DNA of 50,152 bases from Actinomycetes bacterium (lineage in GTDB: Bacteria > Actinomycetota > Actinomycetes > S36-B12 > UBA5976): NCBI GenBank assembly GCA_014190035.1, contig BJFU01000004.1, positions 1 to 50,152 of the forward strand. The letters run 5' to 3'. The translations under genes were made by a program, and so were the position numbers. This document shows, piece after piece, positions 4,450-43,647 of this stretch; the first letter of the stretch is position 1; each line of letters opens with the position of its first letter. The notes beneath the pieces were generated by a model. That model did not search any database. It was not told the DNA's origin and saw only the letters and a list, made by a program, of their open reading frames with translations.

Positions 4450-5742
4450 ATGTCTCAGCCTAAAAAACGCATCCGTATTGATATTTCTGCCTTAAGGGCA
4501 TCACGAGATTTTCGATTAGTTTTTTCAGCAGGAGTCATTTCCAATATCGGTTCCATGATGACCTATGTGGCAATGCCATTTCAGATCAAAGAATTAACCA
4601 ACTCCTACCTCTGGGTTGGGGCAGTGGGATTTGTGGAAACTGTGCCCCTAATAATTTTTGGTCTTTATGGCGGAGTACTTGCTGATGCTTTTGATCGCAA
4701 AAAAATGATTCTAATTTCAGAATTCGGGGCGATGCTGGTTTCTATCGGTTTGTTATTAAATGTGATCTCAGGTTTTAACTCCCCTGTTTTGATTCTGATT
4801 CTGGCCATGATTTTTGCTGCCACCGATGGCATCTTTCGACCAGCAGTAGATGCCATGATTCCCCAAGTTGTGCCTTATCAAAAACTTCCTTCTGCTGGAG
4901 CCCTAAATTCTTTGCGCCATCAAACCTCTTCCATTGCCGGTCCCATGATCGGAGGCATCATTTTGGCATCCGGTGGAATTGCTTTTGCTTATTCTTTGGA
5001 TGTTTTATCTTTTGTAGTTTCTTTATTTTTATTAATCAGAATAAATTCTGCCAAACCAATTCACGGTGCTGAAAAACCATCACTTCATCGAATCAAAGAA
5101 GGCATCAAATATGCCTTATCCCGTAAGGATTTATTGGGCACCTACCTAGTTGATCTTTCTGCCATGTTCTTTGCTTTTCCATATGCCTTGTTTCCATTCG
5201 TAGCAGATGAATTAGGTGGTGCCTGGACTCTTGGTTTTCTCTACGCTGCCATCCCAGCTGGTGCATTAATTGCCACATTGACAAGTGGTTGGTCCAATCA
5301 TGTATCTCGACATGGACGAATCATTGCCTTTGCTGCTGCAGGTTGGGGTTTTGGAATTGTGTTGTTTGGTTTAGTGCACTCTTTGTTTTTTGCAATCATT
5401 GGTTTGATGATCGCTGGCTTCTTTGATCAAATCTCAGCCATATTTAGAGGTCTTATTTGGAACCAATCAATACCTGATCACCTGCGAGGACGCCTTGCCT
5501 CGATTGAAATGTTGAGCTATTCGGTTGGACCGCAGATGGGACAGGTGCGAGGTGCACTTTTTGCACGCGCTTTTGGACTGGAATTCTCATTAATTTCCGG
5601 TGGAATATTAACAATTATTGCATCTGCATTAGTTAGCGGAATGTTAAAAGATTTCTATAAATATGATGTAAATACCAATGTTTTTGCAAAAAAATTAAAA
5701 GATTTTCGTGAAAAAAATGCAAAAATTGACCACAATATATAG
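4450..5742 (+). CDS. MFS transporter (EntS/DHA3-like)
   Basis: About 12 hydrophobic segments; motif A GVLADAFDRKK; C-terminal PDHLRGR. Confidence 0.85.
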   Translation: MSQPKKRIRIDISALRASRDFRLVFSAGVISNIGSMMTYVAMPFQIKELTNSYLWVGAVGFVETVPLIIFGLYGGVLADAFDRKKMILISEFGAMLVSIGLLLNVISGFNSPVLILILAMIFAATDGIFRPAVDAMIPQVVPYQKLPSAGALNSLRHQTSSIAGPMIGGIILASGGIAFAYSLDVLSFVVSLFLLIRINSAKPIHGAEKPSLHRIKEGIKYALSRKDLLGTYLVDLSAMFFAFPYALFPFVADELGGAWTLGFLYAAIPAGALIATLTSGWSNHVSRHGRIIAFAAAGWGFGIVLFGLVHSLFFAIIGLMIAGFFDQISAIFRGLIWNQSIPDHLRGRLASIEMLSYSVGPQMGQVRGALFARAFGLEFSLISGGILTIIASALVSGMLKDFYKYDVNTNVFAKKLKDFREKNAKIDHNI

Positions 5743-5899
5743 CACTTTTTTCACACTTATATATTTAATGTGAATAATGTGACTTGGCAAAAACCCCCTC
5801 TGACCTGCGAAAATGCACCCTTTTTTCAATTATTTTTAATTAAATTATTAACAAAAAATTTGTGTTTAAAACATTAAAAATTAGTGAAAAAATAGTTGC

Positions 5900-5912
5900 G
5901 ACACGGCGTGTC
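5900..5912. promoter_or_regulatory. Inverted GACAC-ggc-GTGTC site upstream of the protamine-like gene (candidate WhiA-type site)
   Basis: GC-rich palindrome in a very AT-rich intergenic region; GACAC is the reported Streptomyces WhiA core. Confidence 0.4.
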
Positions 5913-6014
5913 AAAATACGCGCTACATAGTGACAATATGCATTTCTTCTGGAACGATTGTTCTTAACGTTCTTCTGTGATTTCCGGAACAGAAGACACT
6001 CGCCAGGAGGAATT

Positions 6015-6242
6015 GTGGCTAAAAGAAGAAAAAAAGCAGCAAAGAAAGCAGCACCAAAGCGCCGTCGTAAGAAGGCAGCAGCTGCACCAAAGCGCCGTCG
6101 TCGTAAAAAAGCAGCAAAAGCTGCTCCAAAGCGTCGTCGTCGTAAAAAAGCTGCAAAGAAAGCTGCACCAAAGCGCCGTCGTCGTAAAAAAGCAGCAAAA
6201 GCTGCTCCAAAGCGTCGTCGTCGTCGTAAAAAAGCTGCGTAA
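6015..6242 (+). CDS. 75-aa protamine/histone H1-like basic repeat protein
   Basis: AGGAGG at 6005-6010, GTG at 6015, repeats of PK-R(3-5)-KKAA(K/KK)AA, synonymous variation between repeats, own terminator downstream. Confidence 0.85.
   Translation: MAKRRKKAAKKAAPKRRRKKAAAAPKRRRRKKAAKAAPKRRRRKKAAKKAAPKRRRRKKAAKAAPKRRRRRKKAA
6081..6224 (+). repeat. Exact 63-bp duplication (6081-6143 and 6162-6224, period 81 bp) within a 33-42 bp coding tandem repeat
   Basis: GCTGCACCAAAGCGCCGTCGTCGTAAAAAAGCAGCAAAAGCTGCTCCAAAGCGTCGTCGTCGT occurs twice. Confidence 0.9.
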
Positions 6243-6260
6243 CCTTTACAGGTTTGCTAG

Positions 6261-6291
6261 AAAAACCCCGGTGCTTGCACCGGGGTTTTTT
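6261..6291. terminator. Bidirectional intrinsic terminator
   Basis: AAAAACCCCGGTGC-TT-GCACCGGGGTTTTTT between convergent genes. Confidence 0.9.
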
Positions 6292-6309
6292 ATATGTCTA
6301 TATAAATAG

Positions 6310-6558
6310 TTAAGAAATCCGGCGGCGATATATCGCCCAGATCCCACAAGCAATGGCAAAGACGCCCATCAGTCTGGCACCTATTCCAATTGAAAGACCG
6401 GCTAACCAGATTCCGGTGATTATCGCCAAAGAGCCAAAGAAGAAAGTCAAAATCCTGGCCCACATTTTCTTGCTAGCAAATGAGAAGGCAATGGCAATTG
6501 GACCGAATAAAAGTACTGACAAAAGTATCAGGCTCACAAGAAGCGCTAAAGATTCCAT
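6310..6558 (-). CDS. 82-aa small membrane protein (about 3 TM), unknown function
   Basis: MESLALLVSLILL... with three hydrophobic stretches and a basic C-terminus; fills the gap between terminator and protease. Confidence 0.65.
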   Translation of the reverse strand: MESLALLVSLILLSVLLFGPIAIAFSFASKKMWARILTFFFGSLAIITGIWLAGLSIGIGARLMGVFAIACGIWAIYRRRIS

Positions 6559-6577
6559 TAAAGTAGTCTTACAGCAG

Positions 6578-7633
6578 ATGAAAAAAATATCTAGTGCATT
6601 TATCGCAATTTTCACCTTATTTATAGGTCTTATTTCAACTCCCGCAAATGCTGTTGTTGGTGGAGCAGATGCCACAGGATCAGGCTTTGTGGTTGCAGTT
6701 CGCGTTGATTTGCCTGGAGATTTGCAAACTGCATGTACTGGTGGTTTATGGAAACCAAAGATAGTTGTCACTGCTGCTCACTGTGTTGTCGCTGAAGGAA
6801 CTTCCACGGTTGCCAATGCCTCCGAGGTTCATGTTTATGCCCAAGGAGCAAACGTTTCAGGAGCACGACCTGCAGCAAATACAACAGCAATTATTTTGAC
6901 TGGCGGATATTCCAATTCCAGCACCGGATTTGTGGAAGCAAATGATTTAGCGTTTCTGATTCTGGATAAAGAAATTGGCACTCCCCTGATCTCTCGTTTA
7001 GCTAGCGAATCCGAAGCTGCTGCTGCCACAGTCTTGGGTAAAAAAATGAACTTTTTTGGCTATGGCCAAACGGCAAAAGTAAGTGATGTTTCCTTGATCC
7101 CGCTAACTCTTTCCCAAACCCCATTTCAGTTCTTAGGTGGCAAGACTTATCTATATGGCAAATCAGCAACAGGAACAGGTGCTTGCTTTGGAGACAGTGG
7201 TGGTCCAGTTATTTTGCAAACCGAAACTGAAAACCTTTTAATTGGACCAGTTGCAGGAGGCAGTGGATCTCCTTGTTATCCAGAAATAAAAGAGCGTGCA
7301 GTGTTGGGACTAGTTGCCAGTAATTTCACAGCGCTAGTTAAAACTGCCCTTACAACCGCAGGTTATTCAGCAGATGAAGCCTTTACAACTCCTAGACCAA
7401 GTCTTAATAAGGGCACTTTCACTGCCAAAACTGTTCTTAAAAAGATCGGGGTTACTACCTCTGGTTCTACCAATGTCAGATTTGTGGGAGTAAAAGCAAA
7501 ACCTAAGAATGCTTGTGTTGCTACCGCAACTTCAGTAATAGTTAATGCCAAGGGAACTTGTACCTTGACCTTTACTGTTAAAAAATCAGGCAAAACTGCA
7601 AGGACTGCAAAAACAACTTTCGATATTGGCTAG
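6578..7633 (+). CDS. Secreted trypsin-like (S1) serine protease with a Lys-rich C-terminal domain
   Basis: Signal peptide ending ANA, mature VVGG start, TAAHC, NDLAFL, GDSGGP. Confidence 0.9.
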   Translation: MKKISSAFIAIFTLFIGLISTPANAVVGGADATGSGFVVAVRVDLPGDLQTACTGGLWKPKIVVTAAHCVVAEGTSTVANASEVHVYAQGANVSGARPAANTTAIILTGGYSNSSTGFVEANDLAFLILDKEIGTPLISRLASESEAAAATVLGKKMNFFGYGQTAKVSDVSLIPLTLSQTPFQFLGGKTYLYGKSATGTGACFGDSGGPVILQTETENLLIGPVAGGSGSPCYPEIKERAVLGLVASNFTALVKTALTTAGYSADEAFTTPRPSLNKGTFTAKTVLKKIGVTTSGSTNVRFVGVKAKPKNACVATATSVIVNAKGTCTLTFTVKKSGKTARTAKTTFDIG

Positions 7634-7645
7634 GTTTATTTTCCT

Positions 7646-8479
7646 ATGAGCACCACTTTTAAAACAGTTCCAGTAAATATCCCTCGTCCTGAATATGTGG
7701 GCAAGAAAGCCCCTACTGCCTATAAAGGAAGCGATGTTCAGACTTCTGAAGTAATAGAGAAAATGCGCATTGCAGGAACTATTGCAGCTGATGCCATGCA
7801 TTTAGCTGGATCTCAAATAAAAGATGGCATGACCACAGAAGATTTAGATGCGATCGTGCACGAATACATCTGCGATCAAGGCGCTTATCCTTCCACTCTT
7901 GGTTATCGAGGGTTTCCTAAATCTTTATGCACCTCAATTAATGAAGTAATTTGTCATGGAATTCCATCAGAGCAAATAATCAGAGAAGGAGACATCGTCA
8001 ATCTTGATGTCACTGCTTATAAAGATGGGGTTCATGGAGATACCAATTACACCTTCTTAGTAGGAGAGGTAAAAGAAGAAGTAAAACTTCTGGTGGAAAG
8101 AACTAAAGAAGCTCTAGATCGAGCAATCCAAGCCGTAACTCCGGGAAGACCAATCAATGTAATTGGTCGAGTAATTGAAAGTTATGCCAAAAGATTTAAC
8201 TACGGTGTGGTCAGAGATTTCACAGGCCATGGTGTGCACACCTCATTTCACTCAGGATTAGTTATTCCTCATTTTGATGATCCAACTGCCACTCAGTTAA
8301 TGCAAGAAGGAATGACTTTCACAATCGAGCCCATGCTTAATTTAGGAACCCATGATTACGACATCTTGGATGACACTTGGACTGTGTTAACAAAGGATAG
8401 AAAGATGTCTGCCCAGTTTGAGCACACGCTTGTGGTGACTAAAACTGGGGCAGACATTCTTACATTGCCTTCTAGTTAA
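7646..8479 (+). CDS. map: Type I methionine aminopeptidase
   Basis: [30 protein letters not shown] motifs. Confidence 0.96.
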
Positions 8480-9305
8480 CGACTACTTCTCCCACTATTT
8501 TATTACCGATCTTGAAAATGATATTTCCGCCTTTCTTTAATTTCATTTTTGTTTTAACTGAAATATCACCTTTCTTATTTGCCTTCTCAGTCACTATCTT
8601 GGTCAATTTACCTGTTGCGGATTGATAGAAAACATCAATTTTTTTACCCTTCATCGCCGGTTCAAGATTAAGCTTGATTGATCTTGCCCCAGTAATAGTT
8701 TTAATGATTGTGGCTGTTGGTTCCTTTACGACTGGAATTGTGACAGGTGCTGCAACATTGGTACCACCTCTTGATGGCTCATTTGTAATTAGGAGATTTG
8801 CCAATTTCACGCATTCCACCCGATCACTTGCCCCACCTGCAAACTGTAAAACAACTGCCACTCTTGCTTTGCCTCTTTCAAATGCAGAAGAGGGACAAAG
8901 AGTTGCAAAATCTGAAGATCCGGTTGGTACATAAAGACTTGTAGCGTTATTCCAATCTTGATTTGGTCTCCAGCCGATTACTGCTGCATCTTTTACCAAC
9001 ATTGATGCATCTCCACAGGCAGATTCAGTCCATGAAGTTGTTGTCAAAGCTGATGTAAAATAGTTTGAACATCCAGAATTGGAATTCCAAACTGAATTTC
9101 CAAGCCAAAAACCCCAATAGGATCTAGGACCAGAATCTTTATATCCATCAATAGTGTCCACAAAACCACCAGGTGCAGAAACACTTGCAGCAATTGAAAG
9201 CGCTTCGGCTGCTGTTGGATAAAGTACTGTTTCCCCTGCTCGAGCGGGAGAGATGATTGCAGCACTAACGATAAGTGCAATTGCAGTTGTAAATATTTTT
9301 CTCAT
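8472..9305 (-). CDS. Secreted protein, putative cobalamin-binding (DUF4430/transcobalamin beta-domain- and SCO2322-like)
   Basis: Signal peptide ending ARA; [25 protein letters not shown] pattern; GGAGG RBS at 9313-9317; downstream of a cobalamin riboswitch. Family assignment is from motif recognition only. Confidence 0.65.
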
Positions 9306-10923: not shown

Positions 10924-11682
10924 ATGATCAATTGGCCAGCCGATACTTTGACGCTGGCCATTGACATTGGTGGTTCAGGAATTAAAGCCAGCGTCATAAA
11001 TAAAGATGGCGAAATGGTTTGTGAACGAATTCGTATGGAAACTCCTTATCCATCTCATCCAGCAGGTTTCTCTCAAGTAGTGGCAGATTTTGTGAAAGAT
11101 TTACCCAAAGCACAACGTGCCAGTGTGGGTTTTCCTGGTTTAGTTCGAAATGGAATTGTGGTTATGGTTCCTTCCCTTTCTCGATTAGTTAAAGATGGGC
11201 CAAAAGATCCAGAATTAGTTAAAGCGTGGAAAAACTTTGATTTACAAACTCCTATGACAAATGCTCTAGGAATTCCCACCAAGGTTGCAAATGATGCAGA
11301 CATTCAAGGAGCAGCTGTAATTAAAGGTGAAGGCCTGGAATTTGTAATGACACTAGGAACTGGTGTTGGTACAGCTTTATTTCAAAATGGAATATTGCTT
11401 CCCCACTTAGAACTAGGGCATGCTCCTTTTAGACAAAGTGAAGAATTTGAAGAACAAATTGGCAATGCTGCGCGGGAACGAATTGGTGTTGAAAGATGGA
11501 CTAAGAGAGTAATAAAAGCTATTGCTAAATATGATCAATTTCTTTATTACGATCATTGTTATGTTGGTGGCGGAAATGCTAAACACATTAAAGGTTTAGA
11601 TCTAGGACCAAAAGTAACCAGGGTTAGCAATAAAGCAGGTCTTTTTGGTGGAGCAAGAATTTGGGACTTAGAAGCTAGTTAA
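10924..11682 (+). CDS. ppgK: ROK-family polyphosphate glucokinase-like kinase
   Basis: DIGGSGIK, NDAD, TLGTGVG, LELGH, GGGN. Confidence 0.75.
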   Translation: MINWPADTLTLAIDIGGSGIKASVINKDGEMVCERIRMETPYPSHPAGFSQVVADFVKDLPKAQRASVGFPGLVRNGIVVMVPSLSRLVKDGPKDPELVKAWKNFDLQTPMTNALGIPTKVANDADIQGAAVIKGEGLEFVMTLGTGVGTALFQNGILLPHLELGHAPFRQSEEFEEQIGNAARERIGVERWTKRVIKAIAKYDQFLYYDHCYVGGGNAKHIKGLDLGPKVTRVSNKAGLFGGARIWDLEAS

Positions 11683-15809: not shown

Positions 15810-16049
15810 TTATTGCGCGTCTACGTCCACGAAATCAATTCGAGTACTGCGGCCACCTTGTAATGCATTAACCACAGTTCTAATGGAAGTTGCAGTGCGA
15901 CCATTTCGACCAATTACTCGGCCCAAATCTTCGCCATTAACTGTAACTTCTAAAGTACGACCACGCTTTGTTGTCTTTTGTTCAACTTCAACATCAGATG
16001 GGTGATCAACAATTCCTTTTACCAAATGTTCTAGAGCGTCTTCAATCAT
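15810..16049 (-). CDS. khpA: KH-domain RNA-binding protein KhpA
   Basis: [13 protein letters not shown]; between rpsP and rimM. Confidence 0.92.
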
Positions 16050-16609
16050 TCTGATTTAGCCTCTTCTGCAACTGGTGCTTCTGCTGGAGTTTCTTCTGCT
16101 GGAGTTTCAACAACTTCGGCAACTGGTTCTTCAGCTTTAACTTCTTCAGCTACTGGTGCTGCTTCTTCTTTTACTTCAGCAACAGCTTCTTCTGCTTTTG
16201 GTTCTTCAACTTTGGCAGCAACAACTGGTTTTGGTCTTGGATTCTTTTCTTCTTCTTCTCTTTCAGCCAAGTTTTCTTTCAAAGCTTTTTCGTATTTTGC
16301 AGCATGATCTGCTTTTGGTGGAGCAACTCTAACTTTGCTGGTGGTGTCTTTTTCACCTTTAAATTTTTGCCAGTCACCTGTTAGTTTTAGTAGTGCTACA
16401 ACTGGTTCAGTAGCTTGTGCACCTACTCCTAACCAATAAGCAACACGATCTGCATCAATTCTGATAATTGATGGATCTTCTTTTGGTTGGTAAATTCCAA
16501 TTTCTTCAATGGCACGACCATTGCGTGCGGTACGAGAATCAGCCACAACAACGCGATACATCGGTTGGTGGATCTTGCCTAAACGCTTTAACTTGATTTT
16601 TACGGCCAC
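16046..16609 (-). CDS. rpsP: 30S ribosomal protein S16 with acidic C-terminal extension
   Basis: [29 protein letters not shown]; GTG start at 16609. Confidence 0.97.
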
Positions 16610-16699
16610 GAATTTATTCTTTTCTGCTTGGGAGGTGTTTAACCTTGGAAGACCAATAATGGCAGAAACTAATCTCAGACACCCCAAATACCCCTACCT

Positions 16700-35083: not shown

Positions 35084-35551
35084 TTAACCTAAATCGTTAA
35101 AGGAAGAATTACCACTTATTTTTTCTCTGCCACGCCTTACTGCTAACAAGGTTCTATTCAGAGTGATTTCAAAGTTTGCTAGACGAGCATCGATGTATTC
35201 ATCTGTTTCATTGCGCATTGAATTTAGTTCTTGGTCTACTTGTTGCAAAATTTCTTGAGCTCTTTGAGTGGCTGATTGAACAATTTCAGTTTGCGAAATA
35301 AGTCGGTTAGCTTCTGCTCTTGCTTGTTCAATCACAGCTTGACCAGCCATTCGACCTTCTTCGATCACTGCTTCTTTGTTGTCTAGTAAGTGATTTGCCT
35401 GCAAGATATCTTCTGGAAGCTTCTTCTTTAATTCATTCAATAAATTAATCATTTCTTGACGGTTAACTAAAGCACCATCACGAGATAGCGGCACTGAGCG
35501 TGCTTCTGCAATCTCGTTTAAAATCTGTTCGATTATTTGTAAGGATTCCAT
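35084..35551 (-). CDS. sepIVA: SepIVA-like coiled-coil cell division protein
   Basis: EARSVPLS N-terminus, coiled coil, YIDARLANFE; position between coaD and DUF177. Confidence 0.7.
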   Translation of the reverse strand: MESLQIIEQILNEIAEARSVPLSRDGALVNRQEMINLLNELKKKLPEDILQANHLLDNKEAVIEEGRMAGQAVIEQARAEANRLISQTEIVQSATQRAQEILQQVDQELNSMRNETDEYIDARLANFEITLNRTLLAVRRGREKISGNSSFNDLG

Positions 35552-43251: not shown

Positions 43252-43647
43252 TTAGCGCTTCTTTTTTGCTTTTTTCTTTAGGCCTAGAATTGATTTACCC
43301 TTTGAAGCTTTTTTAGTAACTTTTTTGGTTTTCTTGGCAGTTACTTTTTTAGCTTTCTTTGCTGCTCTTTTTCCACCAAGCACGATTGCTTTGAAATCTG
43401 CTGCTGGACGGAATTTTGCAACTGTTTTGGCAGGAACTTTAACTGGAGCACCAGTCATAGGGTTACGTGCCATTCTTGCTGGGCGGTTTTTCTTTTCCCA
43501 GATACCAAATCCTGCGATTGAAACCTTGTCACCTGATGCAACTGCGTTGGTGATCGTGTCAAAAAAGATGTCTACGAAATCTAGAGCTTGACGACGGTTG
43601 GCTTCAAAATGTTGTTGCACTAAGTCTGCTAAGTCTGGCTTCTTCAA
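43252..43647 (-). CDS. hup: HU family DNA-binding protein with short Lys-rich tail
   Basis: IAGFG, R.ARNP.TG, FRP motifs; follows leuD. Confidence 0.94.
   Translation of the reverse strand: MKKPDLADLVQQHFEANRRQALDFVDIFFDTITNAVASGDKVSIAGFGIWEKKNRPARMARNPMTGAPVKVPAKTVAKFRPAADFKAIVLGGKRAAKKAKKVTAKKTKKVTKKASKGKSILGLKKKAKKKR

Follow-up and report, generated by a model that had tools for sequence, protein, structure and literature searches.

What kind of protein is encoded by a short open reading frame whose product is made of lysine, arginine, alanine and proline, and what might it do in the cell? The question is raised by positions 6015 to 6242 of contig BJFU01000004.1 (assembly GCA_014190035.1, an Actinomycetes bacterium). 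The first 50,152 nucleotides of this contig, the whole stretch that was analysed, are referred to as the window. A reading of the letters alone (the sequence-only reading) had described a stand-alone, protamine-like protein of 75 residues and four residue types, with five PK-R(3-5)-KKAA units, an AGGAGG ribosome-binding site and a dedicated terminator, in a very small cell. All of these counts were recovered when the sequence was re-read. The terminator is a hairpin of -26 kcal/mol (z -4.9; 0 of 200 shuffles were as stable), the composition (Lys plus Arg) is indeed protamine-like with no matching family model in Pfam or NCBIfam even at E ≤ 10, and the host genome is small (1.26 Mb at 89% completeness, 38.6% G+C). 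The answer we arrive at is that the frame is a real gene, the local form of an old stand-alone histone H1-like gene, whose product probably acts on the nucleoid.

The translation contains 24 Lys, 23 Ala, 22 Arg and 5 Pro in addition to the initiator (K 32%, Ala 31%, R 29%). Basic residues make up 61% of the product, and acidic, aromatic or any other residue types are absent. A degenerate N-terminal AKRRKKAA is followed by five P-K-R(3,4,4,4,5)-K-K-A-A units and the repeat extends over all 75 residues; on the gene itself Tandem Repeats Finder reports a period of 39 nt (5.2 copies) and one of 81 nt (1.9 copies, 96% matches). The calculated net charge is +46 for a mass of ∼8.7 kDa. Inspection of the product gave no signal peptide and no hydrophobic segment, and its 75 residues hold no globular or folded domain and none suited to building a hydrophobic core. 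In the ESM Atlas, the exact sequence is modelled with a mean pLDDT of 0.32, and we infer that the polycation is intrinsically disordered. The gene is present once in the genome, in which (at 89% completeness) Lsr2 was not found.

To describe relatives we label the host genus g1, other genera of its family g2, g5, g6 and g7, and other families of the order f7 and f9. An open-frame match was found in 13 of the 18 other g1 genomes, and in a fourteenth a contig end cuts the gene off after its leader and 19 codons. Three of the remaining four have contigs that end before the expected place and one has no methionine aminopeptidase (MetAP) match at E ≤ 1e-60. Gene loss within g1 is thus unsupported. 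Among nine aligned orthologs the variable sites are distributed over codon positions 1, 2 and 3 as 14/11/40, 26 variable columns are purely synonymous versus 14 that change the residue, and every indel within the coding sequence is of 3 or 45 nt, a multiple of three. The Shine-Dalgarno sequence and the GTG-GCN start are invariant in the g1 orthologs. A terminator lies 3' of the gene in g1, g2 and g6, and two groups of g1 genomes differ in its stem by a compensatory change from T-A to G-C. Since frame, start context and terminator are all conserved in relatives, the feature goes beyond chance: positions 6015-6242 are a real protein-coding gene.

How far the gene extends beyond its genus depends on the query. 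With the window protein, two of the eight genera of the family match (13/18 g1 and 5/8 g2 genomes), and these are the only matching genera of 47 in 301 genomes of the order. The g2 form recovers seven of eight g2 genomes and, weakly, a 135-aa stand-alone Lys/Ala protein of g6. This g6 protein in turn finds stand-alone K/A/P-rich reading frames in five g6, four g5 and one g7 genome (the g7 ortholog is cut at a contig end, its start being off the contig), and it also matches HU and some larger proteins through their Lys-rich tails. Absence of the gene from g5 is ruled out by this Lys-rich query, which finds the g5 orthologs. Wherever the start is on the contig, the orthologs share the context (C)AGG(G)AGG, four bases, GTG GCN, giving V-A-[AVK], and this arrangement is kept in every such ortholog recovered. 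It is common to g1, g2, g5, g6 and family f7, in each case ahead of K/A/P(/R) repeats over the full length. An open frame extends upstream of the GTG but is not conserved as protein, whereas the Shine-Dalgarno sequence is.

Chromosomal position points the same way. The window has the order MFS - polycation gene - trypsin-like - MetAP, and tblastn gives MFS-gene-MetAP or panB-gene-MetAP in g5, g6, g7 and families f7 and f9; one g1 genome (G005) also has panB-gene-MetAP. An H1-like gene lies upstream in two of the four MetAP loci examined from other families (genomes of 52% and 71.5% G+C). The exceptions to MetAP downstream are g2, with ppk1, and L022, a separate lineage known from a metagenome-assembled genome (MAG), with an M13 peptidase. 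The g2 genes run panB-gene-ppk1 along a single strand (L016, L025, L026, L027, L063): ppk1 is just downstream in six genomes (in full in five) of the seven with the gene, and the contigs of G046 and G047, broken inside the gene, are consistent with this. A terminator-like hairpin follows the g2 ortholog in L016, the sole g2 downstream sequence read. On grounds of shared start context and shared MFS/panB-gene-MetAP position, the window gene is, as judged from sequence, orthologous to a stand-alone H1-like gene of long standing that is conserved in the family and in at least two others. We define this group as stand-alone H1-like genes upstream of map, and the window gene has both its start, repeat and terminator features and its position. 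The gene has its own terminator, its neighbours vary between lineages, and we read it as monocistronic. In the window a gene for a trypsin-like serine protease (6353-7633, +) separates the polycation gene from MetAP, and this protease gene was seen only in g1 loci; in the g5 and g6 loci examined the polycation gene is directly upstream of MetAP.

These orthologs bear on the proposal of the sequence-only reading that the gene is the best candidate for an undescribed system in the window. As a positional ortholog of a Lys/Ala/Pro-rich H1-like protein that occurs throughout the family and in two further ones it is not isolated, and H1-like Lys/Ala modules are described as DNA binders in Actinobacteria (DdbA, PMC3643593). 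The further suggestion that the gene is easily missed by annotation also needs amending: the exact 75-aa sequence is in the ESM Atlas, letter for letter, and related proteins are on record, either unnamed or as 'hypothetical protein'. The exact sequence is absent from a 15-billion-protein collection. A homologous-protein search gave three matches among 8000 scored candidates, phmmer against 1.84 billion representatives three at E ≤ 0.001, and a contig scan by pattern 599 pattern matches of which two were confirmed; HMMER composition filters penalise low-complexity sequences, and such blanks measure neither rarity nor likeness. Pfam HC2 (PF07382) matches neither the polycation (E ≤ 0.01, E ≤ 10) nor three relatives (E ≤ 10), and PF00216 (HU) does not match the polycation. 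The 30 nearest ESM Atlas feature clusters contain unannotated small proteins, mostly of Actinomycetota; of the clusters to which a Pfam family is assigned, the nearest (score 0.89) has HC2 on 23% of members, which we take as a lead only. In the literature we found no paper on the orthologous group, the map/panB synteny or the Arg-rich form, supplementary gene lists lying outside the search.

What distinguishes the window protein from its orthologs is arginine. The ratio R/(K+R) is 0.02-0.09 in g5 (102-160 aa, K+R 0.38-0.46), 0.08-0.17 in g6 (109-135 aa, K+R 0.47-0.48), 0.25-0.29 in g2 (65-92 aa, K+R 0.52-0.56), 0.44-0.48 in g1 (57-75 aa, K+R about 0.60) and 0.50 in L022 (74 aa, K+R 0.59). Among the orthologs recovered, Arg runs of 3-5 are confined to g1, g2 (where they are of 2-3) and L022. 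The most Arg-rich loci are those of lowest G+C (0.38-0.42), the g1 locus being the lowest, and the ortholog of the 71.5%-G+C outgroup stays Lys-dominant. Since the Arg-rich forms are found in the loci of lowest G+C, Arg appears to have been gained against the mutational bias, which suggests that selection drove the gain. From these comparisons we infer that the g1 form is a shortened, charge-denser version in which about half of the lysines were replaced by Arg runs.

The Arg codons themselves are unusual for the genome. AGA accounts for 52% of genomic Arg codons and CGT for 16% (CGT and CGC together 27%); the gene has 17 CGT, 3 CGC and 2 AGA among its 22. Its CGT+CGC fraction is 0.91 versus a median of 0.25 over 944 open reading frames, and the top 20 by this measure include seven ribosomal proteins, EF-Tu, two GroEL, GrpE, SSB and a cold-shock protein. 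The Arg codon choice of the gene is that of highly expressed genes. RNA libraries agree. Between 10 and 21% of the sampled words of a 1.3-kb stretch around the gene occur in 17 RNA-type runs, of which four, from four studies, were aligned to the locus; the other runs are not counted as evidence. All four aligned metatranscriptome runs contain contigs at least 90% alike over the coding sequence (23, 195, 44 and 33 contigs), with summed word depths of 50-158,000 over the coding sequence versus 0-29 over the flanks. One contig of 103 nt (depth 475) covers 5999-6101, including the Shine-Dalgarno sequence and start, with two differences. The loose ends of the contigs hold further gene variants with other starts and ends, indicating that these communities contain a diverse family. 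From codon bias and RNA libraries together, the gene is probably very highly expressed, its level of translation included.

What such a protein would do is best approached through proteins of like composition. On this analogy we judge it rather probable that the product is an abundant, disordered, nucleoid-associated polycation, an H1-like ortholog that would neutralise and compact DNA. Its Lys and Arg side-chains would make multivalent contacts with phosphates, without sequence specificity, and so bind polyanions, the main target probably being the chromosome. There, charge would be neutralised and DNA compacted or bridged, as by the H1-like modules of DdbA, HupS/HupB and AlgP, and the Arg runs would bind phosphate more tightly than Lys. 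Because orthologs differ in their number of repeats, a polyelectrolyte with non-specific contacts is favoured over a protein that fits a fixed site. The Lys-rich H1-like domain of actinobacterial DdbA is reported to bind DNA and cause its condensation in vitro and to affect nucleoid compaction (PMC3643593), and KPAA-repeat peptides of AlgP are reported to bind DNA (PMC9239181).

Several points weigh against this reading. The chromosome was chosen as principal target by analogy, and the composition fits RNA, ribosomes or polyphosphate equally well; translation, binding and localisation of the polycation are predictions. The RNA evidence consists of assembled contigs that carry no strand, end or level information, its depth sums related organisms and is inflated by internal repeats (82 of the 195 contigs of run X3 fit two places), and DNA carry-over in the libraries is possible. 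The Lys-to-Arg direction rests on Lys-dominant outgroups from two other families. Lastly, the aligned orthologs show no frameshifted repeats, which the sequence-only reading had named as a refuting observation (the internal indels are of 3 or 45 nt), but an in-frame TAA would cut the protein to 55 aa in one g1 genome (G002) and another TAA lies inside the match in one g2 genome. Each could reflect genuine truncation or a misassembly of the repeat. In the G002 locus (L012, C165, ∼11111-11356) a further in-frame repeat part runs on after the TAA to the usual stop.

The other polyanions of the cell suggest two further explanations, and neither need exclude a role on DNA. The polycation could be a polyphosphate-granule protein that coats or scaffolds polyphosphate or, like AlgP in Pseudomonas, tethers granules to the nucleoid, with DNA binding secondary. 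The g2 order panB-gene-ppk1 and the PPK1 encoded by the host genome speak for this, together with the precedent of AlgP, a protein of net charge +55 described as enriched with polyphosphate granules and needed for granule spacing (PMC9239181), and the Arg-specific attraction to polyphosphate ions reported for another protein (PMC8045028). However, adjacency to ppk1 is limited to one genus and so amounts to a single inherited event, ppk1 and panB are on separate contigs in the host genome, as they are in those g5, g6 and g21 genomes that were checked, the neighbour conserved across the family is MetAP, and the polycation has neither KPAA repeats nor a structured N-terminal domain; we regard this explanation as unlikely. 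Very basic small proteins are typical of ribosomes, and a polycation associated with RNA or ribosomes might serve as an RNA chaperone, as a ribosome filler or hibernation factor, or, in a cell so small, as a counter-ion to rRNA in place of polyamines. In its codon use and RNA depth the gene resembles the translation apparatus, and the single match in a search of PDB sequences, none being significant, is eukaryotic ribosomal protein L36 (E 3.2, far below significance). Against a fixed site on rRNA are the lengths of the orthologs (57-160 aa) and a repeat number that is polymorphic even within g1; moreover the gene is outside the ribosomal-protein operons, and no Pfam or NCBIfam ribosomal family matches at E ≤ 10 (coverage of the smallest actinobacterial ribosomal proteins in these libraries was unchecked). 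We think this slightly less likely still.

Roles away from cellular polyanions appear much less plausible. Polycationic Lys/Arg peptides can be antimicrobial, as described for protamine-like proteins (PMC10253609), and arginine is rich in nitrogen, so that a secreted or surface antimicrobial-type peptide, an anti-phage DNA binder or a nitrogen store could be imagined; yet a signal peptide and hydrophobic segment are lacking, and the gene is conserved across genera at a housekeeping locus, not in a mobile or defence island (judged without a PADLOC search). We give this group of roles very little weight. That the locus does not encode a protein, its open frame arising from repetitive DNA or the locus specifying a non-coding RNA, is strongly disfavoured and least credible of all. 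Open reading across the repeat is also possible in other frames and on the opposite strand, the antisense frame yields weak self-matches and HMMER-based searches retrieve almost no relatives, but third-position substitutions are in excess, indels come only in multiples of three, the Shine-Dalgarno sequence and start are kept, the K/A/P/R composition is held in this frame only despite widely differing nucleotides, the Arg codons are CGY-selected and no Rfam family reaches its gathering score. We also considered and rejected a split-off HU tail that compensates for a tail-less HU, because in g1 the gene coexists with a tailed HU. In addition, the three g6 HU loci read carry K/A-rich tails and the gene is in five g6 genomes, and HU is tail-less in 30 of the 30 g5 loci read with the gene in at least four g5 genomes. 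Longer HU open frames in g21 and g3 suggest K/A-rich tails like those of g6.

Taking the nucleoid-associated polycation as the working model, how does it compare with known systems? Stand-alone bacterial H1-like Lys/Ala proteins are already a known kind (Hc1/Hc2, AlgP-type repeats, actinobacterial tails). The N-terminal H1-like domain of Streptomyces DdbA and the Lys-rich tails of HupS, HupB and TopA are described as Lys/Ala-rich and repetitive modules of actinobacteria (PMC3643593; TopA, PMC5714199), but they are appended to folded domains (DksA-like, HU, topoisomerase), whereas the polycation has none. It also has Arg runs of 3-5 where the K/A/P-rich orthologs and tails recovered from relatives have none (DdbA, HupS and TopA being compared by description). 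The window HU (43252-43647, -) does have a Lys-rich C-terminal tail of ∼40 aa, and there is a weak match (E 0.026) between the g2 ortholog and the tail of HU in a related genus; the polycation, however, has no HU/IHF fold and the single HU gene lies elsewhere. AlgP and PhaF of Pseudomonas likewise consist in part of disordered, H1-like polycationic repeats, with variation in repeat number described for AlgP (PMC9239181), and the association of AlgP with polyphosphate granules recalls the g2 ortholog next to ppk1. AlgP is, however, described as a protein of 352 aa with a 124-aa helical N-terminal domain, where the polycation has no second domain, and the repeats described for AlgP/PhaF are KPAA (KPVA, KTAAA), Lys-based variants with no Arg named there (PMC9239181). 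The unit of the polycation, PK-R(3-5)-KKAA(K)AA, contains no KPAA, so that it shares neither the repeat nor the N-terminal domain by which AlgP/PhaF are recognised.

Chlamydia Hc1 and Hc2 condense DNA. They too are stand-alone, Lys/Ala(/Arg)-rich repeat proteins, and the polycation resembles them in composition and in standing alone, but it has no PF07382 match and its host is free-living with no developmental cycle known; Hc1 is also cited in the DdbA paper (PMC3643593). Another small basic protein, ScvA of Coxiella, is a very short Arg-rich peptide. Together with Hq1 it is described as a DNA-binding protein of a small-cell form with a condensed nucleoid (PMC4766238), a likeness drawn from description, but both are developmental-stage-specific proteins of an intracellular pathogen whereas the polycation gene has a constitutive-type codon bias and a housekeeping locus. 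Sperm protamine-like (PL) proteins are described as rich in Arg and Lys and of 6-40 kDa (PMC11607694), a composition that the polycation shares, and the origin proposed for PL proteins and protamines from histone H1 (PMC11607694) has a parallel in the shift from a Lys-rich H1 type towards Arg seen here. The polycation does not belong to the protamines proper, which are described as having up to 80% Arg (PMC11607694), whereas Ala and Lys are still major components here. There is no homology to sperm PL proteins or protamines and no winged-helix precursor, and the relatives of the gene are bacterial; the likeness is at most convergence. Small basic ribosomal proteins differ in having a fixed length and a family-model match, neither of which applies to the polycation and its orthologs (57-160 aa; no family at E ≤ 10).

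We speculate, with considerable doubt, that in the most genome-reduced, lowest-G+C lineages of this family of freshwater actinobacteria a Lys/Ala H1-like ancestor may have been remodelled by selection into a short Arg-run polycation, against AT pressure and at a cost in nitrogen, and that this protein could be among the most abundant of the cell and its main condenser of the nucleoid (perhaps also of polyphosphate or RNA). Such a course would be a convergent replay of the H1 to protamine-like transition of sperm, tied here to cell miniaturisation. The series of orthologs from long and Lys-rich to short and Arg-rich would in any case be a natural experiment on Arg versus Lys in dense packing of polyanions, the same question that is posed by sperm protamines. 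The hosts are of a small-genome, low-G+C planktonic actinobacterial type, and aquatic metatranscriptomes of many studies, from rivers and lakes among other waters, contain related sequences. Should the protein reach the abundance that its codon use and RNA depth point to, these cells would have an unnamed protein as a main constituent of their chromatin or cytoplasm; it is invisible to Pfam and NCBIfam, and tryptic proteomics would destroy it.

The gene is embedded in a set of conserved flanking elements (see the feature table).

Features of the polycation locus in the window, with strand and basis or description
Feature	Position	Strand	Description
Conserved upstream box CCCTCTGACCTGCGAAAATGCACC	5796..5819	+	24 nt, ∼215 nt 5' of start codon
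Promoter-proximal block with palindrome GACACGGCGTGTC (5900-5912)	5896..5959	+	conservation
5' leader hairpin	5971..5996	+	8-bp stem TCTTCTGT/ACAGAAGA, loop GATTTCCGGA; ends 9 nt before Shine-Dalgarno
Shine-Dalgarno AGGAGG	6005..6010	+	4 nt 5' of GTG start, read from sequence
Coding sequence of K/R/A/P polycation	6015..6242	+	GTG start, TAA stop at 6240-6242, 75 codons
Small stem-loop right after stop codon (ACCTTTACAGGT)	6241..6254	+	fold
Intrinsic terminator hairpin and U tail	6260..6291	+	folding of 6240-6300

Across the g1 loci the upstream box has 0-3 mismatches, and these loci include L015, where the upstream gene is panB and not MFS. Because it is kept there despite the different upstream gene, the box travels with the polycation gene. 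It is a candidate distal promoter or protein-binding site, set in an AT-rich spacer that is poorly conserved in the g1 alignment. Its 13-nt core TGACCTGCGAAAA has one further occurrence in the genome, a partial second copy of the box at G000 C25:11232. The promoter-proximal block is near-invariant among 12 aligned g1 upstream regions. A sigma-70 consensus scan placed no promoter near the gene, its sole site being at 5750-5778.

The leader hairpin is found at the matching position in all 12 distinct leaders (four genera and one MAG), with energies of -8.3 to -11.4 kcal/mol. Its stems vary between genera and the loop motif UCCGGA is common to g1 and g2. By inspection there is one pair swap in g1 (T-A versus A-T) and one in g2; taken individually the folds are weak, matched by 3-38 of 300 shuffles. 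In g1, the leader segment UUUCUUCU (5943-5950) pairs with codons 4-6 (6024-6031), enclosing the ribosome-binding site, in the minimum-energy fold of four of the six leaders folded. Codons 4 and 5 are the only AGA codons of the gene and are conserved in the genus. As judged by complementarity, UUUCUUCU may alternatively pair with the Shine-Dalgarno region. Downstream, the small stem-loop keeps its CCT/AGG stem in relatives while the loop varies. The terminator was not listed by a consensus terminator scan, and the Rfam matches in 5000-7000 of the window are weak and all over the terminator.

A few observations concern other proteins. Two reading frames of the window have no Pfam family, at 8472-9305 (-; 277 aa, E ≤ 0.01) and at 35087-35551 (-; 155 aa, E ≤ 1e-5). 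A second stand-alone polycationic protein, outside the window (G000 C19:1960-2283, -), is Lys/Ser-rich, 107 aa long and of a different family; it has a conserved non-basic C-terminus ...PSPFNPLSW, and its g2 relative L131 (G043) ends in ...PLPNLPTW. In g6, L127 and L128 combine a long Lys/Ala-rich N-terminal region with a C-terminal four-cysteine motif, an architecture that by eye is DdbA-like (H1-like plus DksA-like). The ribosomal proteins S16 (16049-16687, -) and L19 (13868-14437, -) of the window are extended at their C-termini by long stretches in which Glu, Ala, Pro and Val abound, acidic low-complexity tails of a charge opposite to that of the polycation.

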